DNA from: an uncultured Bacilli bacterium
GTDB taxonomy: Bacteria > Bacillota_I > Bacilli_A > RFN20 > CAG-826
NCBI GenBank assembly: GCA_934140155.1
Contig: CAKPBC010000001.1
Span: forward strand, 32,981-96,980
Length of the DNA: 64,000 nt
Direction of reading: 5' to 3'
The notes under the pieces were generated by a model. That model searched no databases and was not told the origin of the DNA. It saw nothing but the letters and a program-made list of their open reading frames with translations. Shown here piece after piece: positions 27,669 to 62,579 of the stretch. The number at the start of each line of letters is the position of its first letter. Positions within the stretch are counted from its first letter, which is position 1. The position numbers and the translations under genes are program-made.

Positions 27669-27679
27669 CTTTTTCACCA

Positions 27680-29545: not shown

Positions 29546-30033
29546 TATGCTTCTCCTCCTAACTTACGATATTCATTGATTACTTGTTGTACTTGATTAA
29601 CTGACATCTTAGGATATACTTTTCCATTAATGCTTACTGCTGGGGCAATACCACATGCTCCAATGCAACGTAAGGCATCAATAGTAAATAATCCATCTTC
29701 CGTTGTTTCTCCAGGTTTAATACCTAAAAGTTCGGAAAACTTGTCACATATTTGTTGTGCACCTTTAACGTAACATGCAGTTCCTAAACAAACTCCAATA
29801 ACAAATTTGCCTTTAGGTTTCAAAGAAAAAAATGAGTAAAAAGTAACTACACCATATATTTCTGAAACAGGTATACCTAATTTTTCAGATACGATTTCTT
29901 GAACTTCAAAAGGAATATAGCCATATTCTTTTTGAACCTGGCTCAAGATCATCATTAATGGTGTATTTTCGTTCTTATACTCAGCGATGATTTCTTCAAC
30001 CCTTTTGCAAGCGGCTGAACTCAATTTTGCCAT
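29545..30033 (-). CDS. hydC: NuoE-like [2Fe-2S] subunit (HydC/HndA)
   Basis: 162 aa with Cys motifs CLGTAC...CIGACGIAP; first gene of the hyd operon. Confidence 0.8.
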   Translation of the reverse strand: MAKLSSAACKRVEEIIAEYKNENTPLMMILSQVQKEYGYIPFEVQEIVSEKLGIPVSEIYGVVTFYSFFSLKPKGKFVIGVCLGTACYVKGAQQICDKFSELLGIKPGETTEDGLFTIDALRCIGACGIAPAVSINGKVYPKMSVNQVQQVINEYRKLGGEA

Positions 30034-45596: not shown

Positions 45597-46253
45597 TTAT
45601 TTTTGTTCTTCTTTTTGATGATTTTTTACTAAAAATTGCTTGTGATAAGTATACTTGCAACCGCAATAAAGTTGTTGATAAAGATTATATTTAATACGCA
45701 TTTCACGTGCTTCATCTATGCCTTTGTTTTTCTTAAAATCAGAATAAAAATATTTTGTATAGTCGTATTTTTTCTCTAATTCTTTACCAATAGCATTTAA
45801 AATTTGGCTATTCTTTTGCCTAGAAATAGTCATAACTGTTGTAAAATAATCAAACCTATGCTCGTTAGCGTACTTAAACGCTTCATCCATTCTTTTGGTA
45901 TAGCAAATCTTACAGCGATCTAATCCTTCTGGTTGATCTTTGTATGGTTCTAAGTCTTTGTTATACGTATCATTATCATAAGGCGTTTCAATCACTTCCA
46001 CGCGCACGTTATAATCTTTATAGAAATATTCTAAAAATTTTTTAAGTTCATCTTTTCTTCTTTGATATTCACTTTCAGGATAAATATTTGAGTTATTATA
46101 AAAGATAGTAACATCAAAATATTGACTTAAAAATTTAATTGGAAAAGTAAGACAAGGTCCACAGCAAGCATGTAAAAGTAATGTTGGACGCTTGCCATTT
46201 AATGCTTCTATTTCTTTAAGAGATTCTAAATAATAGTTAATTTTCTTTTCCAT
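45597..46253 (-). CDS. queH: Epoxyqueuosine reductase QueH (DUF208 family)
   Basis: [14 protein letters not shown] plus CKIC...CGCKY Cys motifs typical of DUF208/QueH. Lies downstream of tgt-queA. Start uncertain: TTG at 46274 or ATG at 46268 or 46253. Confidence 0.75.
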
Positions 46254-47273
46254 AAATAAACATTGCATCTCCAAAAGAGAAGAAACGATATTTTTCTTTA
46301 ACGGCTTCTTTATAACATTCTAAAATAAATTCACGTCCCGCAAGAGCGGATACAAGCATAATTAAAGTAGATTTAGGCAAATGGAAATTAGTAATTAGTC
46401 CATCAATCGCTAAATACTTATATCCTGGATAAATAAATATTGAGGTATTGCCAGAGCATGCCTTAAAAGTTCCATATTCTTGCATAACAGATTCTAAAAC
46501 ACGTGTTGAGGTTGTACCAATTGAAATAATTCGGCGATGTTCTTTTTTTGCTTTATTTAAGATATCCGCAGTTTCTTGGCTCATAACATAATATTCTGAG
46601 TGCATATGATGTTCTAAAACATCATTCACTTTTACTGGTCTAAATGTTCCTAAACCAATATGTAAAGTAACATCTACAACAATAACACCTTTTTGTTTTA
46701 ATTTTTCAAATAATTCTTCCGTAAAATGAAATCCTGCAGTCGGAGCGGCGGCACTTCCTTCCACTTTAGCATAGACAGTTTGATAACGTGAATTATCATC
46801 ACATTGTTTACGAATATATGGAGGTAAAGGCATTTTGCCTAATTTATCGAGCACTTCATAAAATACACCTTCATAAATCATATGCATAATACGAATGCCT
46901 TCTTCTTTAATTTCTAAACATTCTGCTTTTAATTCACCATTTCCAAAAGAAACGATAGTGCCAACTTTAACCGTTTTAGCATTACCAACTAAACATTCCC
47001 AGTTGTCATTTTCTAATTGTTTTAACAATAACAATTCAACATGAGCATGAGTTTTTTCTTTTTCACCTAACAATCGAGCCGGTATAACCTTAGTGTTATT
47101 TCTAACCAAAACATCACCCGCATGTAAGTAATCAACAATATCATAAAAATGCTTATGTTCATAAGTTTTTGTATCTTTATTAATAACCATTAAACTAGAT
47201 TCATCACGTTTTTTCGCTGGCGATTGCGCAATTAACTCTTCTGGTAAATCAAAATCAAATAAACTAATATCCA

Positions 47274-47274
<1 letters not shown>
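46237..47274 (-). CDS. queA: S-adenosylmethionine:tRNA ribosyltransferase-isomerase
   Basis: 345 aa [20 protein letters not shown]... Confidence 0.93.
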
Positions 47275-48434
<1,160 letters not shown>

Positions 48435-48439
48435 TTAAT

Positions 48440-48475
48440 AGTCTTTAAGCAAAAGAAAAAAGCACAACTAAGGTG
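48440..48475 (-). terminator. Weak terminator after the MBL gene (end of the phn-type operon)
   Basis: Minus strand reads agcacc-uuaguug-ugcu (5-bp stem) followed by U6. Confidence 0.4.
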
Positions 48476-48510
48476 CTAATCTCAAAAAGTTATTGAAAAC
48501 AAGGTAATCA

Positions 48511-49197
48511 TTAAATTACTCTTGCTATGTTAAATCCTTCATCAATGCATTTTTTTATTAACAAATCGCTATCAAAATGCATTAGAAATACTCTATTACG
48601 ATATTCAAGCGGTATTTCTTTACATAAAGTATTTAAACCGATATGAAAATTAGAATCTTTATCACTAACTTCATGATAGAGAGTATCTAATTCACCTGCA
48701 AAAAACATTTGTTTTGCTTTCTTATTTAATAAACATGTGTCTCCAGAATAAAAGAATTTTTCTAAAGGAGAATAAACAAAATAACTACGACTATCCGATA
48801 TGTGTTTTGCCTCAACTGATTCAATAGTAACATTCTTATCTTTATAAATCTTATCTTCAATAATTTTGACCAATTCATAGTTATAATCTGTTAATTTTAA
48901 AAATGCTATCATTTTGTTTTTATTTGAGCACAAAATAGTTACATTATGGACCGGATTTATAATAGTTAAATAAACGAGCAATGCTTCAAGTGAGCCAATA
49001 TGATCCCCATGCATATGTGTTATAGAAATAACCACATCATTTTCTTTGCTAAAATTGATATATTTTACAATTTTGCTAGCAATTTTTTCTCCGCAATCAA
49101 AAATATAAAAAGTATTATCATATTTAAAATAAGCTGCTGTGTTATCTAAATCATAATTAAATGCTGAACCATTACCTAAAAATTTTAAACTAGTCAT
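48511..49197 (-). CDS. MBL-fold metallo-hydrolase, short form (phosphodiesterase-like; HxHxDH)
   Basis: 228 aa with FLGNGSAF glycine-rich start and THMHGDH metal motif. Start overlaps the upstream kinase stop by 8 nt. Confidence 0.7.
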   Translation of the reverse strand: MTSLKFLGNGSAFNYDLDNTAAYFKYDNTFYIFDCGEKIASKIVKYINFSKENDVVISITHMHGDHIGSLEALLVYLTIINPVHNVTILCSNKNKMIAFLKLTDYNYELVKIIEDKIYKDKNVTIESVEAKHISDSRSYFVYSPLEKFFYSGDTCLLNKKAKQMFFAGELDTLYHEVSDKDSNFHIGLNTLCKEIPLEYRNRVFLMHFDSDLLIKKCIDEGFNIARVI

Positions 49198-49660
49198 TTA
49201 CATAAACCACCTTAATAAAATTGTAGCGGTAAATATTATCTGAACTTGGATCTTTATATCTTTCCATCATTGATAATATAACATCTTCTGGCACCCATTT
49301 TTCTTCTTGTCTTTTATGATTTCGCTTTAGAATTGTATCAATATTTGCTTTTAACATTACTAATTGAATGTAGTCAGCGCCTTTTATTTTATCAAGAAAA
49401 TAGTTTCTTCTTTTGTCATCTAAAAATGTCGAGTCTAAAACAACTGTAATATTTTCATTATTAGTTAATAATACATTAGCAGTTTCAATCATTTTATCAT
49501 AAACAATATTCATATCTTCAAGAATTACACGATAATCATGAGTAATAGCAAAACGTGTTTCATCACTTGAAATAATATGACAATTCTCATCTTTTATTGA
49601 TTGAGCATAATATGATTTTCCTGTTCCAGGAAGTCCCGCTAAAAGAATTAATTTACGCAT
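49190..49660 (-). CDS. P-loop kinase resembling the 5'-OH polynucleotide kinase domain (T4 Pnk kinase-domain-like, AAA_33-type)
   Basis: 156 aa. MRKLILLAGLPGTGKSY Walker A at residues 8-16. SSDETR (general-base Asp region). C-terminal KRNHKRQEEKWVPEDVILSMMERY recalling T4 Pnk [26 protein letters not shown]. Start lies 2 nt after the phnE stop. Confidence 0.55.
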   Translation of the reverse strand: MRKLILLAGLPGTGKSYYAQSIKDENCHIISSDETRFAITHDYRVILEDMNIVYDKMIETANVLLTNNENITVVLDSTFLDDKRRNYFLDKIKGADYIQLVMLKANIDTILKRNHKRQEEKWVPEDVILSMMERYKDPSSDNIYRYNFIKVVYVND

Positions 49661-49662
49661 AA

Positions 49663-50553
49663 CTACACTAATTTCTTTCTTAAGAATGATGATAATAAAT
49701 CGACAGCAATAACCAATATAATTACACCATATAAAACCGCGGCTAATTCACTCCAGTGTTCATTTTGTGAATAAACATTAATCGGATAACCAACACCGCC
49801 AGCACCAACTAATCCTAAAATTGAAGCGGTACGAATATTTAAATCAAAACGATATAAAATAACATTGGCAAAGTTAGGAGCTATTTGTGGTACTACACCA
49901 TATTGAATTCGTGTAAAAGGAGTTGCACCAACCGCATCAAGCGCTTCAATAGGTTCATTAGAAATTAAGTCTAATTGTTCCGAATACATTTTCCCAATCA
50001 TACCAACGGAATGGATTGAAAGTACAGCAACACCAGTAACTGGTCCAAAGCCAAACACTTGAATAAATATATATCCTAATAACAATTCCGGGAAAGTTCT
50101 AATCAAAATTAAAAAGGTTTCCGAAATAATTGCATATTTTCCAACTATTTTGCGGCTTGCCAAAAATCCAAACGGAATAGAAAGCAAAGAAGATATTGTT
50201 GTTCCAACAAACGCTATTGCAAATGTTTGAATCACTTGATAAATAACTGATGTTGAAAAATCAAATAATTCTCCAAAGCCAAACATATATTCAAAATTAG
50301 GATGTAAAAAGCCTTCAAGCATTTTTCCTAATTTACCCCAGTTTGGGTTTCTAAAATGGTTAAATAAATCTACATCTAGACTAAAATATAAAACAATCCC
50401 AACAAGCAATACAATAAATACTAAATTATAAATCCATTTTTTCGGTCTTGCTTTGTATGCCTCATCAATTGTTGTAAAATGGTGTTGGACTTTATAAAAC
50501 ATTTTCTTGTACCAAGGCAACTTAGTATATGCATTTTCTTCTATAGTTTTCAT
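49663..50553 (-). CDS. phnE: Phosphonate/phosphite-type ABC transporter permease PhnE
   Basis: 296 aa, multi-TM, with EALDAVGATPFTRIQYGVVPQIAPNF EAA-loop motif. Confidence 0.85.
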   Translation of the reverse strand: MKTIEENAYTKLPWYKKMFYKVQHHFTTIDEAYKARPKKWIYNLVFIVLLVGIVLYFSLDVDLFNHFRNPNWGKLGKMLEGFLHPNFEYMFGFGELFDFSTSVIYQVIQTFAIAFVGTTISSLLSIPFGFLASRKIVGKYAIISETFLILIRTFPELLLGYIFIQVFGFGPVTGVAVLSIHSVGMIGKMYSEQLDLISNEPIEALDAVGATPFTRIQYGVVPQIAPNFANVILYRFDLNIRTASILGLVGAGGVGYPINVYSQNEHWSELAAVLYGVIILVIAVDLLSSFLRKKLV

Positions 50554-50554
50554 A

Positions 50555-51436
50555 TTAACTAATTTTCCTCCTTAAGTAACTAGAAATAAGTTGTAAAACG
50601 AATACAACAATAAATAATGGGACTAAAATAGCACCAATCTTATCATATTGTGTTGATTCCATTGCATCGGATAATAATTGGCCAATACCACCAGCGCCAA
50701 CGAATCCTAATACAACTGAAGCACGAATGTTGATTTCAAATGTGTAGATGAAATTTGAAATAAACATTGGATTTGCTTGTGGGTGAATAGCTAATGCATA
50801 AGCTTGTAATCTATTCGCACCATTAGATATTGCTACTTCAAAAGGATTCATATCTACAGTTTCTACGTATTCATACATTAATTTAAAAATAATACCAAAT
50901 GTAAATAAGGTCATCGCAAAAACACCTGCTGTTTCACTATAGCCATAAAATATAGCTCCGATAATAGCTAATACAAATGTCGGAATAGTACGCAAAATAT
51001 TCACTAATACACGCACAATTTGATTAACAACTTTGTTTTTCATAACATTAGAAGATGCTAACATATAAAAAGGAACAGCTAGCAAAGTACCAAATACTGT
51101 GGCAATAAAAATCATTTCGACAGTTTGCCATATTTTAAAACACGCCACATTCCATAAATAATCCCACCATGCATCTCTTGTTTTTAGCGACCACTCTGAT
51201 GGTACAAATAGTTGAGAAACAATTTCACCTAATTTATCAAATCTTATCTTATTGTCCATTGGTAAAAATATAAAACATAGACCAAATATTAGCGCATACA
51301 AAAGAACCCATACTAAAATTAGTGATCTTTTCTTTTCCACTACTTTAGTAGGATTTCCAAATTCATCCGTGCTAACAACCATGGTTTTATGAGTTAGGCG
51401 ATATAAAAAACCATTATTTTGTGGTTCCATTATCAT
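50555..51436 (-). CDS. phnE: Phosphonate/phosphite-type ABC transporter permease PhnE (second copy)
   Basis: 293 aa with EVAISNGANRLQAYALAIHPQANPMF motif. Confidence 0.85.
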   Translation of the reverse strand: MIMEPQNNGFLYRLTHKTMVVSTDEFGNPTKVVEKKRSLILVWVLLYALIFGLCFIFLPMDNKIRFDKLGEIVSQLFVPSEWSLKTRDAWWDYLWNVACFKIWQTVEMIFIATVFGTLLAVPFYMLASSNVMKNKVVNQIVRVLVNILRTIPTFVLAIIGAIFYGYSETAGVFAMTLFTFGIIFKLMYEYVETVDMNPFEVAISNGANRLQAYALAIHPQANPMFISNFIYTFEINIRASVVLGFVGAGGIGQLLSDAMESTQYDKIGAILVPLFIVVFVLQLISSYLRRKIS

Positions 51437-52199
51437 CCACTCCTAATTTCTCATTATGGTTTAAAGAACGGCCATAAATTTTGATTAATGCTTCTTCTGT
51501 TACTTCTTCTGGCTTTCCGTCAAATACAATTTCACCTGCACGAATACCAATAATTCTTGTTGCATATTTAAGTGCTAAATCTACATGGTGCATATTAGCA
51601 ACAATAGTAATTTTTTCTTCTTGATTAATTCTTTTAAAGTCATCCATAACTGATAAAGTAGTGATTGGGTCAAGAGACGCAACTGGCTCATCAGCTAATA
51701 TCAATGATGGTTGTTGAGTTAAGGCTCTTGCAAGAGCAACTCTTTGCATTTGTCCTCCACTTAATTGATCAGCACGAACAAATGCTTTATCGAGAATGCC
51801 TAACTTATCAAGTGATTGTAAGGCAAGCATTTTTTCTTCCTTTGAATATAGGCCAAAAATACACTCAAAGGTAGAGTGATAACCCACTCTACCTGAGAGA
51901 ACATTTTTATAGACACTAGAACGTTTCACCAAATTGAATGATTGGAATATCATACCGATATTTTTACGGATTGAACGAAGTTCTTTACCTTTAGCAGCAG
52001 AAATATCTTTTCCATTAACCATTAGTTTTCCGCTAGTAATCGGATGCATTTTGTTAATAGTTCTAATTATTGTTGATTTTCCAGCGCCTGATAGGCCAAT
52101 AATACAAACGAAATCTCCATCATTGATAGTCAATTTTACATTTTTCAAAGCCGTAAATCCATTTGGGTACGTCTTTGTAACATTTTCAAAGACTATCAT
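51414..52199 (-). CDS. phnC: Phosphonate ABC transporter ATP-binding protein PhnC
   Basis: 261 aa with Walker A GLSGAGKST, signature LSGGQMQRVALARAL, and PhnC-like IFQSFNLVKRSSVYKNVLSG block. Confidence 0.88.
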   Translation of the reverse strand: MIVFENVTKTYPNGFTALKNVKLTINDGDFVCIIGLSGAGKSTIIRTINKMHPITSGKLMVNGKDISAAKGKELRSIRKNIGMIFQSFNLVKRSSVYKNVLSGRVGYHSTFECIFGLYSKEEKMLALQSLDKLGILDKAFVRADQLSGGQMQRVALARALTQQPSLILADEPVASLDPITTLSVMDDFKRINQEEKITIVANMHHVDLALKYATRIIGIRAGEIVFDGKPEEVTEEALIKIYGRSLNHNEKLGVDDNGTTK

Positions 52200-52232
52200 A
52201 ATTTCATTTCCTTTTTAATTAATTTTTATTTC

Positions 52233-53318
52233 TTATTTTGTATTTAATAAACCTTTGTCAACACAGAATTGATAGAATTTTCTTTCGTTTTCAAAATCAG
52301 AATCTTTAGCATCAGTATAGCCTGTGTGTGAATATAAGTTATAAAGATAGAAAGCACCTGTGCCTTCTTTATCAATGCTACCATCTTTAACTAATTCTTT
52401 GAAAGCATGTTTAACAGCTTCTTTGATTTTTGGATCAAGATTAGCACGGCAAGAAATAGTATCATTATAAATACCATCAGTAATTGCTACTACTTTATAA
52501 TCTTCAAATAATTTATCATCTTTGTAGTGTTTACTATCTGATTTAGAATAGAAGTTAGAATATCTAACATCAGTATAACCCCAGAATCCAGCAATTTCGC
52601 CATTCATCATAGCTTCACAAGCTGCAGTATAACCAGATTGGAAATATTTACCTTTGATTTGTTTTGTTGCATCTGTGATATCATCAACCATTTCCATACC
52701 ATGTTCATATAAATAATGTAATGGTCTTAAATAGCCAGCGCCTGAAGTTGTTCCCATTCTACCAATAGTTAAACCAGCCATATCAAGAATATCAATTTTT
52801 CCATCTTTATTAGCATCTTTATAATATTCATTTCTTACTACTAATTGTGAAGAGTACCAGTTAACATCTGTATTAGATTGTTCACCATGATAAGTATATC
52901 CTTCGATTTCTTGGTTCATAGCTTTAATTTGGTCAGCTTCAGTTGTGTAATCTTCTTGAACTTTATAACCTTTACGAACAGAAGTCATTAATACTTCTAC
53001 TTTTCCTGGATTCTTTAATGTTGCTTCAGCATAACCAGAAGCTGTTAAGAAACCAATATCAAGTTGATCAGATAATAAACCTTGAGTTGTAGCAGCATAG
53101 CTTGTACCAGTAGTAATATTGAATCTGTATTCTGGTTCAATTTTCGAAAGCATTGGTGCCATTTTTTTAGCTAAAGTAGCTAATTTACCTGGGTCATTAG
53201 ATGGTACGAATTGGATGTTAATAACTTGTCTGTTATCTTTGTTACATGAAGATAATCCAGCAGCACCACATAATAACATTAATGCAGTCATAGACATTGT
53301 AAAAATAGATTTTTTCAT
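52233..53318 (-). CDS. phnD: PhnD-family substrate-binding lipoprotein (phosphonate/phosphite/organophosphate)
   Basis: 361 aa with LLCGAAGLSSC lipobox and PhnD-like TSGAGYLRPLHYL block. Confidence 0.8.
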   Translation of the reverse strand: MKKSIFTMSMTALMLLCGAAGLSSCNKDNRQVINIQFVPSNDPGKLATLAKKMAPMLSKIEPEYRFNITTGTSYAATTQGLLSDQLDIGFLTASGYAEATLKNPGKVEVLMTSVRKGYKVQEDYTTEADQIKAMNQEIEGYTYHGEQSNTDVNWYSSQLVVRNEYYKDANKDGKIDILDMAGLTIGRMGTTSGAGYLRPLHYLYEHGMEMVDDITDATKQIKGKYFQSGYTAACEAMMNGEIAGFWGYTDVRYSNFYSKSDSKHYKDDKLFEDYKVVAITDGIYNDTISCRANLDPKIKEAVKHAFKELVKDGSIDKEGTGAFYLYNLYSHTGYTDAKDSDFENERKFYQFCVDKGLLNTK

Positions 53319-53740
53319 AAATTTCCTCCTGCGACATTTGCGCGTTCTTATCTATTTTGAATTAGGAAGATTTAATACTGTAGTCTTCTCTTCCTTCTTC
53401 TAATTTATTATACACAATATTATCTACTATACAAAATGTTTTTTTATAAAAAACGTCGATTGCAAGCCACTTTTTTATAAAATTTTGTGGTTGGTTCACT
53501 TCTATTATACTATAGAACAAACTAAAAAAAATAGTCTTTTTTATATAAAATCGTTTTCATAATTTTTTACTAGACTTTATCAACAAATTGTTATAAACTT
53601 AAAATGAACCCACCAAAAATAGAAAAATAATTATTATAATAACGCTCAATTTTTTTAAAATGTTTTTTTTAATGTTTTTTTATTTTTTTCATAAACTAAT
53701 TATATGTACTTTAATTACCATGGAATTATAAAAAAGAAAA

Positions 53741-53812
53741 TAAAAGCAGGTCTATTAATACGATATGAGTATCTTGACTCATTTCATAACATTAAACCTG
53801 CTTTAGTTTTGT
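53741..53812 (-). terminator. Bidirectional hairpin terminator downstream of udk
   Basis: aaagcaggt...(46 nt with inner 6-bp stem atgagt/actcat)...acctgcttt 9-bp stem. U-rich on the minus strand (uuuuauuuucuuuuuu) and T-rich on the plus strand. Confidence 0.5.
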
Positions 53813-53875
53813 ATTTTAAGGATGGAAGTGTTTATCCAATTAGGGAATATCGCTGGCACGAATATTACGAGTTTC

Positions 53876-54505
53876 TTAACGATTTATAAGCTCGTTAATT
53901 CTACGCATAACTTTTTCAATTTGTATTTCATCTAAGCCATTATTATCATTATTAATAAAGACAATATCACAATCATCTTTTGTTGGTTCTATATATTGAT
54001 AATGACATGGCTTAACAGTAGTTAAGTATTGATCAATTACTGATTCGATTGTGCGTCCTCTTTCTTTAACATCTCGAGATAATCTTCTTAATACGCGTAC
54101 ATCAGCATCAGTATCTACATAAATAGATAAATCTAATAAATCACGAATACCCGGTACTTGATAAATCATAATACCTTCAACAATGATAATTTTTTTAGGC
54201 TCCACTAATTGGGTTTCTTTGATTCGTGAGTGAGTTTTAAAATCGTAAATTGGTTTTTGGATACTTTTGCCTTCTAATAATTCTTTTAAATGTTTACTAA
54301 ATAATGGTGCATCATATGATTCTGGAACATCATAATTGCTTTTGGCTCTTTCTTCTGGAGATAAGTGACTGCGGTCATTACAATAGGTGTCATAAGAGAC
54401 ACGAACTAAATCATCTTTGAATATTGTTTCTAGATAATCAGATAAAGTTGTTTTTCCTGAACCCGAGCCTCCGCCAATGGCAATTAGTATACTTTTTCTT
54501 TCCAT
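53876..54505 (-). CDS. udk: Uridine kinase
   Basis: 209 aa with IAIGGGSGSGKTTLS P-loop. Confidence 0.92.
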   Translation of the reverse strand: MERKSILIAIGGGSGSGKTTLSDYLETIFKDDLVRVSYDTYCNDRSHLSPEERAKSNYDVPESYDAPLFSKHLKELLEGKSIQKPIYDFKTHSRIKETQLVEPKKIIIVEGIMIYQVPGIRDLLDLSIYVDTDADVRVLRRLSRDVKERGRTIESVIDQYLTTVKPCHYQYIEPTKDDCDIVFINNDNNGLDEIQIEKVMRRINELINR

Positions 54506-54781
54506 AGTGATTCCAACTTTCCGATAAAATTATTTACCGTAAGTTAGTTTATATTGTTGCTCGCATAAAGTAAACTATTTTATGATTTTTTTAAAATCAA
54601 TAATAAAATTAGCAAATTGAATTTTTAAAATTTGATTTGTTATATATCACTTCAAACAATTAAAACATCCAGAAAACATCCAGAAAAACAATTTAAAATT
54701 TTTAATTTATATAATTAACATAATGCAAATCACTTTAAAAATTTTTTAACATCTAATATAATATGAACGGAGATGAGACTA

Positions 54782-55618
54782 ATGATTATTAAAGACGTAA
54801 CTGATGGCAAAGAAAGAGCGTTTTATCACTCTGTTGATACAATATTTGATAACTGTAAAATTAAAGGCGAAGAAGATGGTGAATCAGCTTTTAAAGAATG
54901 CCGTAATATTAAAATTCAAAATTCAGAACTATGTTTAAGATATCCGATTTGGCATAATCATAACTTTGAATTGGTTAACAATTTATTTCATATCGATTGT
55001 CGTGCAAGTTTATGGTATTGCGTAAATGGTAGTATAAAAGATTGTGTACTTGACGGAGTCAAAGCTGTACGTGAATGTAAAGATATAACTATTACTAATT
55101 CTAAAATTAATTCCACAGAATTTGGTTGGAAAAGTGATAATTTAACTCTTACTAATTGTAGTTTAGTTGGAGAATATGCTTTCCTTGATAGTAAAAATAT
55201 AACTATTAAAAATATCGATTTTGCTGGTAAGTATTCTTATCAATATGTAGAAAATATGACTATTGAAGATTCAAAATTAGATACTAAAGATGCTTTCTGG
55301 CATACAAAAAATGTCACTGTTAAAAACAGTTACATTAAAGGAGAATATTTAGGTTGGTATTCTGAAAATCTTACTTTAATTAATTGCACTATAGAAGGAA
55401 CACAACCTCTATGCTATTGCAAAAATCTTACTCTTAAAAATTGTAAAATGATTAAATGTGATTTAAGTTTTGAATATAGCGAAGTTAATGCCACAATCGT
55501 GGGACATGTTGATAGTATTAAAAATCCATTAAGCGGATTTATAAGCGTAGAAAGTGTTGATGAAATCATTAAAGAAGATAGCATTTATAATGATACATGC
55601 AAAATAAAAATTGGCTAA
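54782..55618 (+). CDS. Cytoplasmic right-handed parallel beta-helix repeat protein (DUF3737-like)
   Basis: About 278 aa, no signal peptide. About 8 tandem N(I/L/M/V)T(I/L/V)xN(S/C) beta-helix turns (NITIKNS, NLTLTNCS, NMTIEDSK, NVTVKNSY, NLTLINCT, NLTLKNCK). The only plus-strand CDS in the window. Start at the second ATG (GGAG 9 nt upstream). Confidence 0.55.
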   Translation: MIIKDVTDGKERAFYHSVDTIFDNCKIKGEEDGESAFKECRNIKIQNSELCLRYPIWHNHNFELVNNLFHIDCRASLWYCVNGSIKDCVLDGVKAVRECKDITITNSKINSTEFGWKSDNLTLTNCSLVGEYAFLDSKNITIKNIDFAGKYSYQYVENMTIEDSKLDTKDAFWHTKNVTVKNSYIKGEYLGWYSENLTLINCTIEGTQPLCYCKNLTLKNCKMIKCDLSFEYSEVNATIVGHVDSIKNPLSGFISVESVDEIIKEDSIYNDTCKIKIG

Positions 55619-55631
55619 AGCGCCAATTTTT

Positions 55632-56930
55632 TTAATTGTCTTGAGTGTTTAAATCAGGATTAGATCCTGCTTCTTTTAGTTGAAGTTTTTCTTCTTTTTT
55701 CTTATCGTGATTATATATTAATTTTAAGAATATTGGTGATAACAAACTTGTAACAATAATTAATATCACAATGAATGGCATAATGTTATTATCAATAATT
55801 CCCGCTCCCTTAGAAGCTGTAACAAGACATACTTCCGCTCGAGCCATCATGCCAACACCAATTTTTACAGAATCAGAGAATGAGTATTTGCAGCATTTTG
55901 CGGCAATTCCACATCCAATAAGTTTGCCAACAATACCTGCAATAATAAATAAACAACCAAATAATACAAACGAGCCACTTATTGCTTCAAATTTAGTGGA
56001 TATGCCAATGTTAGCAAAAAACACTGGAACAAATAACATATAACTTAATATGTCTGTCTTTCTTTCAATATATCCGCTTTCGTTATTAGTGGATAAGATT
56101 AATCCAACAATATATGCACCTGTAATATCAGCAATACCAAAATATTTTTCACTTAAATAAGCAATAATAAAGCAAAATGCTAAACTGAATATTGGAACCA
56201 AACGATGGTGTTCAAATCTCTTATCAAGCCACTTAAAGGCTTTACTAGCCACAAATGATAAAACAGCAATAACTGCGAAATATCCAATTGTTTTTAAAAC
56301 AACAATCCAAGGATTAACTGCTTCTCCGCCATTCCCTTTGAATGCAAGAACGAACGATAAAACAATAATGCCTAATACATCATCAATAATTGCTGCCGCA
56401 ACAATTGTAGATCCTACTCTACTATTAAGTTTTCCCATTTCACGTAATGTTTGAACAGTAATACCAACTGATGTTGCCGTTAAAATAGTTCCGTAAAATA
56501 AATTAGTAAGTAATGCATCATGAGTAAGATTAGCAAAGCCACCATTACATAATGTTGCAACTAAAAATCCTAAGCCCATTGGAACAACAACACCCGCAAT
56601 CGTAATAATGACTGCTGGGCCGCCCACTGACTTAATCTGTTTTAAGTCTGTCTCTAAACCTGCAGAGAAAAGAATTAAGATTGCACCAATTTTAGATAAG
56701 AAGCCTAATCCTTCTTGAGTTGTCTCATTTAATATATCTTGATTAGGTATGTAAGAAATTAACCCAATTAATAAACCTGCGACAATCATACCAATTACCG
56801 ATGGTAGATTTAATTTTTTACATATTTTCATAAATATTTTTGAAAATATAAGAATTAGTGCTAGTGGCAACAATATAATATAATAATCACTAGCAATGCC
56901 TTCTAAAAACATATTAAACATCTTAAACAT
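55632..56930 (-). CDS. Cation:proton antiporter (Na+/H+ exchanger family)
   Basis: 432 aa with about 12 TM helices and a C-terminal short soluble tail; typical CPA-fold sequence. Confidence 0.8.
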   Translation of the reverse strand: MFKMFNMFLEGIASDYYIILLPLALILIFSKIFMKICKKLNLPSVIGMIVAGLLIGLISYIPNQDILNETTQEGLGFLSKIGAILILFSAGLETDLKQIKSVGGPAVIITIAGVVVPMGLGFLVATLCNGGFANLTHDALLTNLFYGTILTATSVGITVQTLREMGKLNSRVGSTIVAAAIIDDVLGIIVLSFVLAFKGNGGEAVNPWIVVLKTIGYFAVIAVLSFVASKAFKWLDKRFEHHRLVPIFSLAFCFIIAYLSEKYFGIADITGAYIVGLILSTNNESGYIERKTDILSYMLFVPVFFANIGISTKFEAISGSFVLFGCLFIIAGIVGKLIGCGIAAKCCKYSFSDSVKIGVGMMARAEVCLVTASKGAGIIDNNIMPFIVILIIVTSLLSPIFLKLIYNHDKKKEEKLQLKEAGSNPDLNTQDN

Positions 56931-57126
56931 CTCCTTGCAAATTCACAACTTTGTATTATACCACTATGCATATTTAATGGAAGAAAAATCATAATAAAAA
57001 TTTATTTATGAAAAACGTTTTCTTTTCGTTAATAAGTTATCAATGATTAAATCTTATATAAGCAAAATAATTTATTTAACAAATTATTTATTTTTTTTAT
57101 CCAATTAATTATAATATTAACTACAT

Positions 57127-57202
57127 GGGGCCATAGCTCAGTTGGGAGAGCGCTTCGTTCGCAACGAAGAGGTCGCGAGTTCGATCCTCGTTGGCTCCAC
57201 CA
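57127..57202 (+). tRNA. tRNA-Ala (anticodon CGC)
   Basis: 76-nt cloverleaf ggggccauagcucaguugggagagcg-cuucg-uuCGCaa-cgaag-aggucgcgaguucgauccucguuggcuccacca. G3:U70 identity pair, encoded CCA end. Confidence 0.9.
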
Positions 57203-57215
57203 GTTTAATTGATAT

Positions 57216-57262
57216 ATCCACTAAAATTTTACTTAAATAAAGTGATTTAGTGGATTTTTTAT
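57216..57262 (+). terminator. Terminator after the tRNA
   Basis: atccactaaa...tttagtggat 10-bp stem followed by ttttttatt. Confidence 0.55.
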
Positions 57263-57275
57263 TTAATGATAAAAA

Positions 57276-57312
57276 GAGAACTAGAATTCCATCTAGTTCC
57301 CTCAAAAATCGA
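57276..57312 (-). terminator. Terminator of the glycoside-hydrolase operon
   Basis: Minus strand reads gaactaga-uggaauuc-uaguuc (8-bp stem) followed by ucuuuuu, directly after the stop at 57331. Confidence 0.6.
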
Positions 57313-57330
57313 ATCTTCGAATCTTGTTTT

Positions 57331-59394
57331 TTAGAAGACTGGAGCAAATGGCAAGTCATCTACACTACATTCTGTAATTGTAAATGATTTATTACTTGAC
57401 CATTGCCATTGTCCATTGGTCTCTTTAATACATGATTGTAATGTTACTCTAACACCATCTGCCAAATCTCCAGATAATGTATATGTACATTGCATTTCTT
57501 GAGTTTGTGGTCCTTGATATGTAAATGTCCACATAACATCAACTTTTTCATTAGCTAAATCAAAGATAAAATATGTATTACCATCTTGAGAATATGGGTT
57601 AGCTTTTGTTGTACTTGTGAAATATCTCTTTTCTGGTATTACTAAGTTTCCATCTTTTTCGACCATTGAGATTTTAGATGGCAATGAATTAAATAAGTCA
57701 TCATCACCACTAATTTTTTCACCAATTACAATTGCTTTAAGTTTAGATGATCCTGTTAGTTCGATTTTAACATCAACTGTCTTATCGCCCGAGACTACTT
57801 TCATTGTATCTAAAGATTTAACAATATATTTGGTTTCCACTTCGCCAATCTTACCAGTGATTGTATTTGATGCTTCTGAATCATCAAGTGTAATGTCATA
57901 AGATTGAACTGTCTTATTAGGCATAATTACATTAACTTTTTTATTTACTAAATCTAATTCGCTCTTTAATAAACTTGTATCTAAAATTTCTTCTTTTGTT
58001 TCAGTAATACGCTTTACTAATATTCCAGAAGTATCAAGTCCATCAACGAAACGATATGTTTTCTTAACTGCTTCATTTGATGCATCGAGTACATAAGTAC
58101 CTTGATCAACACCAATTGTAACTTTAGTATCCCAAGTAAATGTATCCCAGTTTGCTCTAACTATTTGCTTTCCTGGATATTTTTTAGTATTTGGAATTGA
58201 CCATTTAATTGTTTTATCTGGATCAAATACAGCACCAACACGTAAATCATTTCTTACTTGCATTGCTGTCCACTTGGTTGTATCAATTTCTTCGCCATAT
58301 TCATAAGTTAAGTCATCCGTTCCGGTATCGATATACATACCAATTGCCGGTGTATATAAGAATCCATTAACTTTTAACGAACGAGTTCCCCATGAGAAAT
58401 CAAGTTTAATATCCGCTGTCCAATCATAGAATTTAGAATTTGATTTTACGCACATCATATTTGCGTTTGTTCCACGATTATCAATCATAACTAAACAATC
58501 CGAGCCATCTTCTTCAATGTTATACCAATATCCAAAGATGTTTTTATTGTCTTGAACGCCATTATATAATCCATCATCCCAAAGCGATAGATAGCCATAA
58601 GTTTTAGAATAGTTTCCTTGATATCCTTCAGCATAGAATCCTTCAAATTGATAAACAATGAAACGATCGTTATCTCTACGTTCACTTCTATTAGTGCCTA
58701 CAGCTTTTTCAATTTCGCCCGTGGTTTTCTTTGCCCAAGGATTATTAGCCTTGCTAAATTTAACAGAAGCAGGATCATAAGGATAATCAGTAACTACATC
58801 ACCAAATTCTTTTTCTACGTCAATTTTAAATCCTAATGTATTATCATTATAAGAATTGTTTCTAGCTTTACACGATGCGATTGTTGCTCCACTTGCAGAA
58901 GTGGCAATAATAATAGCTAACGCACCAATACTATAGCGAATAATATTTGGTTTATTAAATTTAATTGGTTCTTCTTTTTCTGTTACATCTTTAAAAGATG
59001 CTACAATTGCTATAGTTATTATTGCTATTTGCATTACTGTGTACACGCAGTTAAGTGGGAAATTACCACCTTGGAATTCAACATGGTTAATTTGGTCAGC
59101 AATAAGATTAGGAAATAAATATATTTGCTTCATAAATGAGAAACACATAGCGAGTAAAGCTCCTAAATGAATCCATTTATGTTCTGGCATTGCTAAGGCC
59201 ACTACTTCAATTACAAAGCATAATAATGCACAAATCCCAATTACTTCTGGCGTATGTGGTACAGCGTTATTAGCCATAGACGTCTTATAAGTGGCTAAGA
59301 ATAATATACCAAATATAAGTGCAAGTATAGCATCTAACATCATGAGATAGAATCCAACTTTTTTGCCTTTAAATATTTTCTTAAGCATTTCCAT
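57331..59394 (-). CDS. Polytopic membrane protein (about 5 N-terminal TM helices) with a roughly 500-aa extracytoplasmic domain; function unknown
   Basis: Hydrophobic N-terminal 190 aa, then a Thr/Asp/Tyr-rich soluble domain. Start lies 12 nt after the GH3 stop, so same operon. Confidence 0.5.
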   Translation of the reverse strand: MEMLKKIFKGKKVGFYLMMLDAILALIFGILFLATYKTSMANNAVPHTPEVIGICALLCFVIEVVALAMPEHKWIHLGALLAMCFSFMKQIYLFPNLIADQINHVEFQGGNFPLNCVYTVMQIAIITIAIVASFKDVTEKEEPIKFNKPNIIRYSIGALAIIIATSASGATIASCKARNNSYNDNTLGFKIDVEKEFGDVVTDYPYDPASVKFSKANNPWAKKTTGEIEKAVGTNRSERRDNDRFIVYQFEGFYAEGYQGNYSKTYGYLSLWDDGLYNGVQDNKNIFGYWYNIEEDGSDCLVMIDNRGTNANMMCVKSNSKFYDWTADIKLDFSWGTRSLKVNGFLYTPAIGMYIDTGTDDLTYEYGEEIDTTKWTAMQVRNDLRVGAVFDPDKTIKWSIPNTKKYPGKQIVRANWDTFTWDTKVTIGVDQGTYVLDASNEAVKKTYRFVDGLDTSGILVKRITETKEEILDTSLLKSELDLVNKKVNVIMPNKTVQSYDITLDDSEASNTITGKIGEVETKYIVKSLDTMKVVSGDKTVDVKIELTGSSKLKAIVIGEKISGDDDLFNSLPSKISMVEKDGNLVIPEKRYFTSTTKANPYSQDGNTYFIFDLANEKVDVMWTFTYQGPQTQEMQCTYTLSGDLADGVRVTLQSCIKETNGQWQWSSNKSFTITECSVDDLPFAPVF

Positions 59395-59405
59395 TTTATT
59401 CACCC

Positions 59406-62321
59406 CTATTTCACCAATTCTTTTGGCTTTTTAACAAATTCATAGATAATGAACAATGATATAGCCGCTAAGGTAAATGCGCCAAATACACCATCAATAG
59501 TATAAATAACTGGTTTCCACCATTTAAATGTTTCTTCTAAATCTTTGCCACTATCAGCGACATCACCCATCCATGATCTAGATAAAGCATACATGATATT
59601 TTTATTCGCTTTTTGACATAGTTCTAATAAATATCCATCATCAGTAGATGTAATAGCATTTTTAATTTGTTGACCTCTATTTCCATCAAGACAGAATACC
59701 TCAGTTCCACCAACAATCATATCACGAGTTGAAGTATATGATCCTTCACCTTGCAATGCATCATCAATAATTAAACCTTTATATTTCCATTCAGTTCTAA
59801 GTATTTGATTTGATAAAGTTTGATGACATGCAGCATAAGTTAAACCAATTCTATTATATGAAGTCATAATACCAAGGCCTTCGCCTTTTGTTAAGGCGCC
59901 TTCAAATGGCTTTAAATAAATTTCACGAATGGCTTGTTCATTAGAGAATGTTGCAACACCTTGACGATTAGTTTCTTGGTTGTTTAAGAAACAGTGTTTA
60001 ATATTCATAATTAAGCCTTTTTTTCTAGCTTCTTTTACTATATTACTTGCAACATAATAGTTCATAATACCATCTTCCGACATATATTCTGAAGCACGTG
60101 ATCCATAAGGTGTTCTATTGATGTTTGCTCCTGGAGCATTAACAGCAGCAACACCACAGTGCAAAGCTTCTTCACCATAGAAATAACCAAATTTCTTTTG
60201 CATTTCATGGTCCCATGTTGCAGTATAGATTGGTCCAGTAGCAAATCCAGTTGCCCATCTTCCATCACCATAAGCAAATGGAGACAATAAACCTTCTGGT
60301 CCTTCATTAATAGAGTTAGATGGTTTTGATACTGAAGTAACCGCTAAAATGCCACGGTTATCAGACATTGAAATTACTAAATCATCTAATGTCATTTGTT
60401 TAATGAATAAATCCCATTTAGGATCATCATATTCTAGTTTAGCCATATCAGAGAATTTAAGACGATATGGATTTCCTTCTTCATCTTTTAATTGAACTCC
60501 ATACTTTGTACCAGCACCCGCACTATATGATTCTGCATCATCGGCTTTTGTGTACATTCTCATATCGAGTCCTTTTTTCATTTTATCGTTAAGCTTCAAC
60601 CCTTCTAATTTTTTAGGGAAAGTTGCTTGCCAATCTTTTCTTGTTAAATATGTAATTTTTTGGTCATCATTTGCCCAGTAATTAACATCTGCATCATCAA
60701 ATTGGTTAGTAACTTCAACTGAGTCATCATAGTGTGAATACTTATATGCATCCATAGCGCCAGAAATAGCTACTTTTTGCACACAATTTGCGCTTGCTTG
60801 ATAATTTGTACCATTATGGTCAGTTAATGCCGCAGATGGGTTTTTAACTCCTATAACATTATTAAGTGCTTCGTGAGCGCCATTACCAAGTGCAAAGTAA
60901 TAATCACCATCTTCTAAAATGTATTGTTTTTTATTAATTCGATCATATGAAGCTAAGAAATAACGATCAAATTCAATATCCAATGTTTTTGACTCATTTG
61001 GTTCAAGAAGCACTTTATCATAAGCACATAATTGAATTGATGATTTTTCCACTAAATGTTCTTTATCATATTCTGTATATGGGCTTTGGCAGTACACTTG
61101 AATTGATGATCTTCCTTCAACCTCGCCAGTGTTCTTAACAGTTACATTAGCTACAAAAGTATCTTCATCAGCTTTATAAGTAACGCTATTAAGCTTTTGC
61201 TCAAATGTTGTATATGATAAACCAAAACCAAATGGATATGCTACTTCGCGGTCATAAGTCCAATTAGTTTCTCCATCATAAGTTCCGGCATCACCATTTG
61301 CATTTCCTTGATTTAAAACACAATCTTCATATCTTGTTTCATAATATTTATATCCAACATAAATACCTTCTGCATAAGATACGTATTTGTTTGATCTATC
61401 TACGCCTGCACTACCATCAAAATTAATATCGCCAAAGTTTTGATAAGCAGCAGAATTTGATGCATGAGCGGAGAAAGTATCAGGTGTATGTCCGCTTGGA
61501 TTAGCTTCCCCTGTTAAAATATGAACAACACCATCTAAAGAATAGTATCCTGGAACTCCAAACCATAATACAGCATCTACGCCGTATTCTTCTTTGTTGG
61601 CCCAATCTAAACTCATTGGCATCGCACCATTTAATAAGACAATTGTTTTCTTAAACTTACCTGATTCTTTAATCATTTTTAATAAGTTAGCTTCATTTTC
61701 TTGTAAATCAAGAATTCCGGCTTTCGGATCACTATTTTCTGTACCAACACGTACAAATGTTACAATTGCAGCATCGCCAAAAGTATCAAATGATGCTTTA
61801 ATACCTGCTGTATATGCACTTACAGCAACCTCAGGAATATTAGTTTCTGATGGTTCTCCTCCACCAGTATACATATTCCAAATAGTCTTATTATAATTAA
61901 AACCATTATTTTCAAATGCATCGTTTAAATGAACAACTAATTTTTCATTTGGAGCAGCACCTCCGGCACCAGAACGTAAACACAAGTGTGCACTATTACG
62001 TCCAAATAATGTGACGTTTCTTTCTTCTTTTGTTAAAGGTAAACATCCATTATCATTTTTTAATAAAACGGCACCCTGCTCTTCTTGTTCAACACAGTAC
62101 TTATAAGAATCTTGAATCATTCTTTTCCAGCCTGCATCGGATAAACTTCCATCTTCTTCAGCATAGTCAGAACGTTTGGAACTAATTTGACGAACATTCA
62201 ATCCTAAAACGTCGTTAATTAATCCTTCGTTATCCATAGCAACATTAGTTAATGAAATAAATGCTGTTGTTAGCAAAATGCCAACTGAGGATAACCCTAA
62301 CCAAAGTTTGTTTTTTTTCAT
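59406..62321 (-). CDS. Glycoside hydrolase family 3 (beta-glucosidase/beta-xylosidase-like), membrane-anchored
   Basis: 971 aa. N-terminal signal-anchor. GH3 TIM-barrel block ...NIKHCFLNNQETNRQ...EIYLKPFEGAL...GIMTSYNRIGLTYAACHQTLSNQILRTEWKYKGLIIDDAL in the C-terminal half, indicating permuted domain order. C-terminal TM helix (VFGAFTLAAISLFIIY). Confidence 0.75.
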   Translation of the reverse strand: MKKNKLWLGLSSVGILLTTAFISLTNVAMDNEGLINDVLGLNVRQISSKRSDYAEEDGSLSDAGWKRMIQDSYKYCVEQEEQGAVLLKNDNGCLPLTKEERNVTLFGRNSAHLCLRSGAGGAAPNEKLVVHLNDAFENNGFNYNKTIWNMYTGGGEPSETNIPEVAVSAYTAGIKASFDTFGDAAIVTFVRVGTENSDPKAGILDLQENEANLLKMIKESGKFKKTIVLLNGAMPMSLDWANKEEYGVDAVLWFGVPGYYSLDGVVHILTGEANPSGHTPDTFSAHASNSAAYQNFGDINFDGSAGVDRSNKYVSYAEGIYVGYKYYETRYEDCVLNQGNANGDAGTYDGETNWTYDREVAYPFGFGLSYTTFEQKLNSVTYKADEDTFVANVTVKNTGEVEGRSSIQVYCQSPYTEYDKEHLVEKSSIQLCAYDKVLLEPNESKTLDIEFDRYFLASYDRINKKQYILEDGDYYFALGNGAHEALNNVIGVKNPSAALTDHNGTNYQASANCVQKVAISGAMDAYKYSHYDDSVEVTNQFDDADVNYWANDDQKITYLTRKDWQATFPKKLEGLKLNDKMKKGLDMRMYTKADDAESYSAGAGTKYGVQLKDEEGNPYRLKFSDMAKLEYDDPKWDLFIKQMTLDDLVISMSDNRGILAVTSVSKPSNSINEGPEGLLSPFAYGDGRWATGFATGPIYTATWDHEMQKKFGYFYGEEALHCGVAAVNAPGANINRTPYGSRASEYMSEDGIMNYYVASNIVKEARKKGLIMNIKHCFLNNQETNRQGVATFSNEQAIREIYLKPFEGALTKGEGLGIMTSYNRIGLTYAACHQTLSNQILRTEWKYKGLIIDDALQGEGSYTSTRDMIVGGTEVFCLDGNRGQQIKNAITSTDDGYLLELCQKANKNIMYALSRSWMGDVADSGKDLEETFKWWKPVIYTIDGVFGAFTLAAISLFIIYEFVKKPKELVK

Positions 62322-62415
62322 AAATTCCCTTTCCGCGCTTTTTTGCGCATATTTGTTATTATCAAGAAAGTAAAAGACCCTTTTTGATAATTATTACACT
62401 ATAATAATGCTTTAA

Positions 62416-62429
62416 GATAGCGCTTACAA
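62416..62429 (-). promoter_or_regulatory. Candidate catabolite-responsive element (cre) upstream of the GH3 gene
   Basis: Minus-strand TGTAAGCGCTATCT matches cre consensus TGWAANCGNTNWCA at 13 of 14 positions. A nearby direct repeat CAAGATTGTC occurs twice (62437-62446; about 62566-62575). Confidence 0.3.
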
Positions 62430-62579
62430 AAATGACAATCTTGCTATTTTAGTTATGCTTTTATAAACTATGCCATAATTTTAAAAATATAGGTTTTTAA
62501 CGCTATAACTTATAAATATATGCAAAATGTTGATAAAAAATACATAAAGACAATCTTGTTATTTTTACTATTCGCCTTT

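Follow-up and report, generated by a model that had tools for sequence, protein, structure and literature searches.

A PhnD-fold transporter operon with genes for a Pnk-like kinase and an Apyc1-like hydrolase in gut Bacilli: a possible route for uptake and end healing of nucleotides

We analysed a 64,000-nucleotide stretch of DNA from an uncultured Bacilli bacterium (contig CAKPBC010000001.1, positions 32,981 to 96,980), which we call the window and whose GC content is ~32%. The element of interest is a predicted minus-strand operon for an ATP-binding cassette (ABC) transporter of the phosphonate type, followed by genes for a small P-loop kinase and a metallo-β-lactamase (MBL)-fold hydrolase. 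A first-pass annotation, made from the nucleotide sequence alone, had described six tightly packed open reading frames (ORFs) at 48511-53318, and all six are present. The operon and its borders, in the direction of transcription, are as follows.

53319-53875, minus strand: leader in the intergenic stretch that separates udk from the binding-protein gene, with the presumed operon promoter
52233-53318, minus strand: PhnD-fold binding lipoprotein, 361 residues, lipobox LSSC
51414-52199, minus strand: PhnC-type ABC ATPase, 261 residues (TIGR02315)
50555-51436, minus strand: PhnE-type permease 1, 293 residues (TIGR01097)
49663-50553, minus strand: PhnE-type permease 2, 296 residues (TIGR01097)
49190-49660, minus strand: stand-alone Pnk-like P-loop kinase, 156 residues (AAA_33, profile match to T4 Pnk)
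48511-49197, minus strand: putative Apyc1-like class II MBL-fold hydrolase, 228 residues (sequence and fold matches)
48426-48477, minus strand: operon boundary, a weak hairpin with a T-run and then an extended -10 promoter

The junctions between consecutive genes, in gene order, are +33, -23, +1, +2 and -8 nucleotides. The two tightest features named at first pass, a 2-nucleotide gap between phnE2 and the kinase gene (TAG-tt-ATG) and an 8-nucleotide overlap of the kinase stop with the MBL start (ATGACTAG), were both seen, and a Shine-Dalgarno sequence, AAGGTGG, lies 10 nucleotides before the MBL start. The first-pass annotation had also suggested looking for a promoter between phnE and the kinase gene; a promoter scan gave no sign of an internal promoter in the operon, with 52 promoter-like matches against 58.7 in shuffled sequence. 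The best minus-strand promoter-like site of the leader is TAGACC-18-TATAAT at 53754-53725, and a second TATAAT is found at 53412-53407. Over its 557 nucleotides the leader is conserved only in near-identical strains (nhmmer). Neither the leader, at gathering or E <= 1 thresholds, nor the regions upstream of phnD in nine related loci gave an Rfam riboswitch match. At the other end, a terminator-like hairpin with a T-run (48477-48461) lies 3' of the MBL gene, and an extended -10 sequence, TGgTATAAT (48434-48426), follows it ahead of tgt. That the unit has its only terminator 3' of the MBL gene, as stated at first pass, is thus plausible rather than strong: the hairpin is there, but its stem is weak (5 bp) and the scan marked other sites as well. 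Two further sites, equally weak, lie inside phnD and phnC, and the scan returned 7 sites in 10 kb where 3.6 ± 1.9 were expected by chance. From this arrangement we infer that the six genes are co-transcribed.

The conservation of the gene unit was examined in two samples: 55 kinase-anchored loci, one genome per species, all from gut or rumen metagenome-assembled genomes (MAGs), and 80 binding-protein-anchored loci from an independent metagenome scan. Loci were counted by tblastn, since a simple ORF caller missed kinase genes overlapped by longer antisense ORFs. The kinase gene directly followed a colinear phnD-C-E-E set in 32 of the 55 kinase-anchored loci, and the MBL gene came next in 14. 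Among the 80 binding-protein-anchored loci, 29 carried the kinase gene after phnE2, at binding-protein identities from 93% down to 38%. Kinase identity in linked loci falls to ~40% and the flanking genes differ, and in dozens of loci the kinase gene overlaps phnE2 or is separated from it by 0-20 nucleotides. Individual look-ups of homologues revealed the full six-gene unit beside unrelated flanks at 53-62% kinase identity, phnDCEE with the kinase gene and without the MBL gene at 46%, and two kinase homologues at 42-45% identity outside any transporter. When kinases were clustered at 50% identity, three clusters were always accompanied by transporter and MBL and one always by the transporter without MBL; one was mixed and two were stand-alone. 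All sources of identical or near-identical proteins were metagenome assemblies from the human gut, carried under labels of uncultured Mollicutes or Bacilli. The genes 3' of the kinase or MBL gene (SbcD-like, fumarase/malic enzyme, rimP-nusA-infB, MFS, cardiolipin synthase) were excluded from the unit because they are variable and mostly unrelated between loci. Colinear loci with differing flanks thus support the view that the six genes form one conserved unit. As to whether kinase and MBL genes are both kept beside phn transporters in relatives, the kinase gene is (32 of 55 and 29 loci), whereas the MBL gene is kept in one kinase clade only. The conserved core is phnDCEE plus the kinase gene, and the MBL gene is a clade-specific accessory of a clade that includes the window.

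The primary structure of the kinase was then compared with known families. The sequence alone matched AAA_33 at 1e-15 and also the KTI12, PSTK and Pnkp models. With a profile of 20 family members, the best match in the PDB was the kinase domain of T4 polynucleotide kinase (1ly1, E = 7e-13), in agreement with the Pnk-like label given at first pass; PSTK, Clostridium Pnkp1 and the C. thermocellum Pnk domain followed. The P-loop G9-x-x-G12-x-G14-K15-S16 is invariant, its K15 and S16 aligning with K15 and S16 of the T4 enzyme. Invariant D33 and R36 correspond to D35 and R38 of the T4 DxxR motif and invariant T78 to T86, while invariant N114, R117 and P124 and near-invariant V123 correspond to N123, R126, P132 and V131. 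In the T4 enzyme, D35 is the general base acting on the 5'-OH, R38 binds the acceptor's 3'-phosphate, R126 binds the β-phosphate of the nucleoside triphosphate, and V131 and P132 line the base pocket (PMC2831316). R38 is also the reason why T4 Pnk, unlike mammalian Pnkp, accepts mononucleoside 3'-phosphates (PMC2831316). Judged by the conservation of catalytic residues, the protein is a putative Pnk-type 5'-kinase. Residue R34 of T4 Pnk contacts the second phosphate of an oligonucleotide; the corresponding position in the kinase is Ser or Thr, which we take, speculatively, as a hint at a mononucleotide acceptor.

PSTK itself was considered as an identity for the kinase and rejected: TIGR03574 scored 48.5 against a cut-off of 290.5, and the N-terminal kinase domain alone aligned (156 against ~250 residues). 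The 156-residue protein is a single domain without a fused phosphoesterase (TIGR04075, 26.1 against 750). More distant relatives, found in an exhaustive search, are often ~300 residues long and fused to HD or calcineurin-like phosphoesterase domains. Such HD and Metallophos fusions represent an end-healing architecture, of which the kinase and MBL pair would be a split analogue. The family is small, with 65 homologues in a word-indexed search and only 17 cluster representatives at E < 1e-30 in the exhaustive profile search.

Turning to the hydrolase, 25 homologues all keep the metal ligands D34, H61xH63xD65H66, H132, D153, H185 and H207. Among solved sequences 7fct (MBLBt2; 4e-21) comes closest, and the Apyc1 structures 7t28, 7u2s and 7u2r matched at 1e-10 to 1e-12. 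An AF2 model (mean confidence, pLDDT, 95) gave Foldseek TM scores of 0.87 to 7fct and 0.77 to Apyc1, followed by ELAC1, YhfI and RNase Z, with PhnP at rank 26 (TM 0.70). Against the Pfam family Apyc1 (PF23023) the protein scored 45.7 bits, the gathering score being 50; Lactamase_B_2 was also matched, and the N-terminal half matched RNase Z models. A literature search on the 7fct structure returned unrelated publications only. Enzymes of the Apyc1 type, which also have known homologues in bacteria, belong to the class II phosphodiesterases and cleave cyclic mononucleotides by hydrolysis (PMC9117128). Sequence and model together identify the protein as a putative Apyc1-like class II phosphodiesterase, not PhnP or RNase Z, so that a place in the Apyc1/RNase Z class of phosphodiesterases, families named for comparison at first pass, was supported by the PDB and fold matches. 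RNase Z was rejected as an identity because TIGR02651 scored 60.9 against 292.95, residues 4-142 alone aligned, and the exosite and C-terminal half are missing (228 against ~300 residues). The alternative offered at first pass, a minimal PhnN/PhnP-like pair, did not hold, as neither protein matched the PhnN or PhnP models at E <= 0.01 and PhnP is only a distant fold neighbour of the MBL protein. The chemistry of that idea, the opening of a cyclic phosphodiester combined with a kinase, does resemble the interpretation we prefer below; in ours, the place of a ribosyl 1,2-cyclic phosphate as substrate would be taken by the 2',3'-cyclic or 3'-phosphate of a nucleotide.

We also came across an MBL homologue (41% identical) in a different setting. 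In a Clostridiales MAG (L064, 8001-12302) its gene overlaps one for a TIR + NPHP3_N STAND NTPase, an inositol-monophosphatase-family gene follows the TIR-STAND gene, and at a distance of 4 kb there is a pair of RNA repair genes, Pnkp-Hen1. The setting resembles one of defence or signal degradation, and because of the overlap with the TIR-STAND gene the MBL family is not tied to transporters in general.

The transporter components carry the family assignments they had been given, the binding protein only at the Pfam and fold level. PhnC scored 347.7 bits (3e-104) against the TIGR02315 cut-off of 266.1, and permeases 1 and 2 scored 219.8 (4e-65) and 229.2 bits (5.5e-68) against the TIGR01097 cut-off of 216.7. 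In one sub-lineage (L032, L042, L099-L101) PhnC is ~65 residues longer (324-331 residues) and matches the window PhnC in two separate pieces, which points to an insertion within the ATPase. The binding protein matched Pfam PF12974 (Phosphonate-bd) at 2e-20. It stayed below the cut-off of the PhnD equivalog (TIGR03431, 53.2 against 261.1 bits) and below that of the subfamily (TIGR01098, 85.9 against 112.05 bits). By these scores it is a member of the PhnT (PhnD-fold) superfamily and not a PhnD equivalog. No characterised member is more than 19% identical to it, and it has ~80-100 extra residues. Its AF2 model (pLDDT 90.3) has PtxB, HtxB, PhnD and XAC2383 among its best fold matches; the Mycoplasma proteins p37/MG289, which bind thiamine or thiamine pyrophosphate (TPP), are fold neighbours with weaker matches than PtxB, PhnD and XAC2383.

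What the binding protein may bind can be approached through its conserved residues. The TSG phosphoryl-binding motif (residues 191-195) is conserved, which argues for a ligand bearing a phosphate or phosphonate group. Across 39 homologues 29 residues are invariant, among them R115, Q121, N135, Y155, D250, R252, N285-D286-T287, Y329 and H331, and 25 of these 29 positions are identical in a clade only 32-38% identical to the binding protein. It is therefore probable that all members of the family bind one ligand of some complexity, or ligands very much alike. Phosphonate is an unlikely candidate, because the protein fails the PhnD equivalog cut-off; of the uptake of "an organophosphate or phosphonate" proposed at first pass we consequently retain a phosphate ester as the preferred class. 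GpxB, a member of a PhnT-family "phosphonate" transporter, imports glycerol 1- and glycerol 3-phosphate (G1P/G3P) by means of an enlarged pocket (PMC12718374). Taking into account this transporter and the crystal structure of XAC2383 that carries ATP, the PhnT family is not restricted to phosphonates.

Genes for phosphonate use were searched for in the window and in related loci. No C-P lyase, phosphonatase or phosphite dehydrogenase gene, and no gene for PhnW, PhnX, PhnA or PtxD, was found in the window ORFs scanned (those at 45597-63554 and those of at least 150 residues at 1-32 kb), consistent with the absence of C-P lyase and phosphonatase noted at first pass. ORFs at 33-45 kb were judged by translation only, and ribosomal proteins S10, L3 and L4 were recognised there. 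Nor did any phosphonate or phosphite catabolic gene recur in ~150 related loci.

In a distant binding-protein clade, another kind of enzyme gene lies beside the transporter. Five loci (L069, L125, L128, L135 and L139) carry a gene for a cytoplasmic CpdB-like protein of 509-521 residues head-to-head with phnD. The best NCBIfam match of these proteins is NF006938 (5.9e-60, 203 bits, below the curated cut-off), the model of the bifunctional, CpdB-type 2',3'-cyclic-nucleotide 2'-phosphodiesterase/3'-nucleotidase; UshA scored 91 bits. The five copies are 37-51% identical to each other, and the pairing with phnD has therefore been kept over considerable divergence. The proteins lack a signal peptide, the metallophosphoesterase motif standing at their very start. 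As characterised CpdB-type enzymes are exported, it is unusual to find a form without signal peptide next to an importer. Since the two clades have binding-site residues in common, the CpdB and kinase associations can be read together. The substrates of a Pnk-type kinase, which requires a 5'-OH beside a 3'-phosphate, and of a CpdB-type enzyme would overlap in nucleoside 3'-monophosphates (3'-NMPs) and nucleoside 2',3'-cyclic monophosphates (2',3'-cNMPs), on which the CpdB type acts.

These results raised the possibility that the operon serves the uptake of nucleotides with a 5'-OH and a 3'-phosphate or 2',3'-cyclic phosphate, followed by end healing inside the cell. We give this interpretation a probability of roughly one in three (0.35); the identity of the ligand and the order of the enzymatic steps are deduced from the gene content. 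A PhnT-family importer would have been retargeted from phosphonates to a larger phosphate ester. Its lipoprotein would capture 3'-NMPs and/or 2',3'-cNMPs, perhaps also very short 5'-OH oligonucleotides such as dinucleotides, released in the gut by enzymes of the RNase A/T1/T2 and staphylococcal nuclease types, and PhnC and the two PhnE permeases would import them. Inside the cell the Pnk-like kinase would phosphorylate the free 5'-OH, as T4 Pnk does with 3'-NMPs. In the clade of the window, the translationally coupled MBL protein would open the 2',3'-cyclic phosphate or cleave the dinucleotide or diester bond, and housekeeping 3'-phosphatases of the pAp type or nanoRNases would finish the conversion to nucleoside 5'-monophosphates (5'-NMPs). 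In other clades a CpdB-like enzyme, or enzymes encoded elsewhere, would take the place of the MBL protein.

Several observations weigh against nucleotide import and end healing. In ~12 loci from the binding-protein clades that otherwise carry it, the kinase gene does not follow phnE2; it is also absent from all sampled loci of a clade 32-37% identical, and fewer than half of the transporter-kinase loci have the MBL gene. The kinase family is not restricted to the transporter, with stand-alone paralogues in housekeeping neighbourhoods, and a 45% identical homologue in locus L006 sits instead by a Phos_pyr_kin (PdxK/ThiD-like) gene; this branch may have a different substrate. Within the kinase itself, T4 E57 has no conserved counterpart, and the essential D85 of T4 is shifted by one position in the alignment (D76-S77-T78 against S84-D85-T86). 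Of the ~20 loci in the distant clade, 5 have the CpdB-like neighbour, whose match is below the curated cut-off. Finally, no staphylococcal-nuclease-like gene was found with phmmer in all ORFs of the ~150 loci or with tblastn in the window.

Other explanations were weighed against the same evidence. The importer might carry another organophosphate ester (a glycerol or sugar phosphate, a glycerophosphodiester, or a vitamin such as TPP or pyridoxal phosphate), with the kinase trapping or activating it and the MBL protein splitting a diester form. The binding of G1P/G3P by GpxB, the fold match to p37/MG289, the small-molecule kinases included in the AAA_33 superfamily, the kinase homologue that follows the Phos_pyr_kin gene, and the lipid-related genes downstream at some loci (alpha/beta hydrolases, cardiolipin-synthase-like) all speak for such a ligand. 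However, every specific relative of the kinase (T4 Pnk, bacterial Pnkp, PSTK) has its site of action beside a nucleotide phosphate, p37/MG289 match less well than PtxB, PhnD and XAC2383, the downstream genes differ from locus to locus and fall outside the unit, and no TPP or other riboswitch precedes the operon. As this explanation also leaves the Pnk-specific residues and the CpdB-like neighbour unaccounted for, we regard it as rather unlikely, while giving it the most weight among the alternatives. A somewhat smaller chance is left for the kinase and MBL protein being housekeeping enzymes of RNA end processing or repair that ride on the transporter transcript without sharing its substrate. 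The compact genomes are transcribed mostly in one direction, stand-alone kinase paralogues do occur in housekeeping contexts, the N-terminal half of the MBL protein resembles RNase Z, and its 41% identical homologue lies near a Pnkp-Hen1 pair. On the other hand, the kinase gene abuts phnE2 in dozens of loci whose neighbours otherwise differ, and whole kinase clades occur with the transporter without exception; hitch-hiking by chance would not have survived such divergence. The MBL protein, moreover, has neither the exosite nor the C-terminal half of RNase Z.

Classical uptake of phosphonate, phosphite or hypophosphite for phosphorus acquisition, as by PhnCDE or PtxABC, is what the PhnC and PhnE scores, which pass the NCBIfam equivalog cut-offs, would suggest, and PtxB, HtxB and PhnD are among the best folds of a binding protein that retains the TSG motif. 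We nevertheless consider it very unlikely. The binding protein scores below both PhnD-type cut-offs, and no characterised member exceeds 19% identity with it; its ~80-100 extra residues and 29 invariant positions exceed what a site for a small anion needs; catabolic genes are lacking in the scanned window ORFs and none recurs in the related loci; and the use of phosphonate or phosphite has no place for a Pnk-like kinase. Least probable of all is the salvage of queuosine-related nucleotides, for instance queuosine 3'-phosphate from tRNA turnover, to feed tgt-queA-queH. These genes do directly follow the MBL gene in the window and its close relatives, and five more distant genomes have two kinase paralogues no more than 6 kb from tgt-queA-queH and a putative QueT gene. 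But the adjacency to tgt is confined to species-level relatives (L010, L070, L071 and L080), other copies of the operon have unrelated flanks, between the two units lie a terminator-like hairpin and a promoter, and the kinases near tgt in other genomes are paralogues without transporter linkage.

Compared with E. coli PhnCDE and with PtxABC/HtxBCDE (PhnT family, Transporter Classification 3.A.1.9), the operon has a binding protein that is at most 19% identical and ~80-100 residues longer, lacks linked phosphonate or phosphite catabolic genes, and has a Pnk-like kinase gene attached to its permease genes. The glycerol-1/3-phosphate transporter GpxBCD of marine bacteria (PMC12718374), at 13% identity, is linked to glycerol-phosphate use rather than to a kinase or MBL; the ligand of the operon is probably larger. 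As in T4 Pnkp and the bacterial Pnkp and HD-Pnk enzymes, the P-loop, the general base Asp, the 3'-phosphate Arg, the β-phosphate Arg and the base pocket are kept in the kinase, and as in these end-healing enzymes a 5'-kinase is paired with a putative 2',3'/3'-phosphoesterase. Unlike them, the kinase is stand-alone, and in place of a HAD, calcineurin-like or HD domain its partner is an MBL-fold protein with its own gene; the kinase gene lies with those of an importer, not of a ligase or Hen1, and its presumed substrates are imported small nucleotides, not broken RNA. The MBL protein resembles Apyc1, YhfI and MBLBt2 (7fct) in fold (TM 0.77-0.87) and size and has the HxHxDH binuclear site; it stays just short of the Pfam Apyc1 gathering score and, in contrast to Apyc1, is neither phage-encoded nor, in this operon, in a defence context. 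A putative MBL diesterase and a P-loop kinase encoded with a PhnCDE-type transporter also recall PhnP and PhnN of the C-P lyase pathway, but PhnN belongs to a different kinase family and the ORFs scanned include no C-P lyase gene to provide the PhnP substrate. Mycoplasma operons that combine surface nucleases with ABC transporters have been postulated to take up nucleotides, with no mechanism established (review, PMC9740415). The likeness lies in the import of nucleic acid breakdown products by related wall-less or reduced Bacilli; the Mycoplasma operons include a nuclease and have no kinase or MBL, whereas the present operon has no nuclease. The Mycoplasma operons also use a different class of ABC transporter.

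The scanned remainder of the window is made up of housekeeping genes: rpoBC, ribosomal proteins, nusG, cysS, a HydABC-type hydrogenase, tgt-queA-queH and udk. The uridine kinase gene udk lies directly upstream of the operon, which is weakly consistent with a salvage neighbourhood. Directly after the operon, on the minus strand at 45597-48422, is the tgt-queA-queH module of queuosine insertion and maturation; the scanned genes around the operon included none for preQ1 synthesis or QueT. For tgt, the start listed (TTG, 48422) is probably wrong, as ATG 48398 behind the Shine-Dalgarno sequence acgaggag fits better, in line with an NCBIfam match that begins at residue 15. A DUF3737 protein gene (54773-55618) is the sole plus-strand gene of the neighbourhood. 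On the minus strand, a 690-residue membrane-anchored protein without Pfam or NCBIfam match (57331-59403) is encoded upstream of a GH3-like glycosidase of 971 residues. Further away, the minus strand carries a group II intron (16889-18647; Rfam domains at 16889-16966, 18378-18440 and 18477-18647) with a 420-residue ORF (16979-18241) containing RVT_1 and GIIM maturase domains, situated between the ribosomal protein L1 gene and a 685-residue ORF without family match. A three-gene HydABC-type [FeFe]-hydrogenase cluster (25896-30033, minus strand), with Fe_hyd_lg_C, Nuo51-like and 2Fe-2S thioredoxin-like subunits, fits an anaerobe that lives by fermentation alone.

Two further settings of kinase homologues were recorded in the sampled loci. 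In L031, L044, L045, L049 and L059, as well as in L038 and L039, there is no transporter-linked kinase at the locus; two kinase paralogues (~40% and ~27-32% identical to the window kinase) lie a few kb apart, adjoin genes for a DtxR-like regulator, glutamine synthetase and FAD proteins, and are within 6 kb of tgt-queA-queH. Next to tgt-queA-queH, the first five of these loci carry a putative QueT gene, read from the ORF sequence. In L006 (5214-8477), three genes without known family (123, 275 and 219 residues, the last a membrane protein) precede the Phos_pyr_kin gene.

The first-pass annotation did not recognise the pairing as a described pathway, and in the literature we likewise came upon no account of a PhnT-family importer genetically coupled to a Pnk-like kinase, whether an Apyc1-like MBL protein is present or not. 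Database records give the proteins of the operon no specific names. The components are of known kinds. That they constitute a previously unrecognised route of nucleotide salvage, consisting of a dedicated ABC importer for 3'-phosphorylated or 2',3'-cyclic nucleotides and a base-agnostic Pnk-like 5'-kinase, with an MBL healing diesterase in one clade, is a claim we put forward tentatively.

Through automatic annotation as a phosphonate transporter, dozens of reduced-genome Bacilli MAGs from gut and rumen, labelled Mollicutes, Acholeplasmatales and similar, would be credited with a phosphonate use that they probably lack. If nucleotide import and end healing is the true function, it would explain how auxotrophs use the 3'-phosphorylated nucleotides released by host and microbial RNases and nucleases, products that mycoplasmas have long been postulated to take up, with no mechanism identified. 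The imported nucleotides would be converted to 5'-NMPs without passing through a nucleoside or free-base stage. The kinase would then represent the first physiological, metabolic role of a Pnk-type kinase on mononucleotides outside RNA repair, and the transporter would be the first nucleotide-specific member of the PhnT family.

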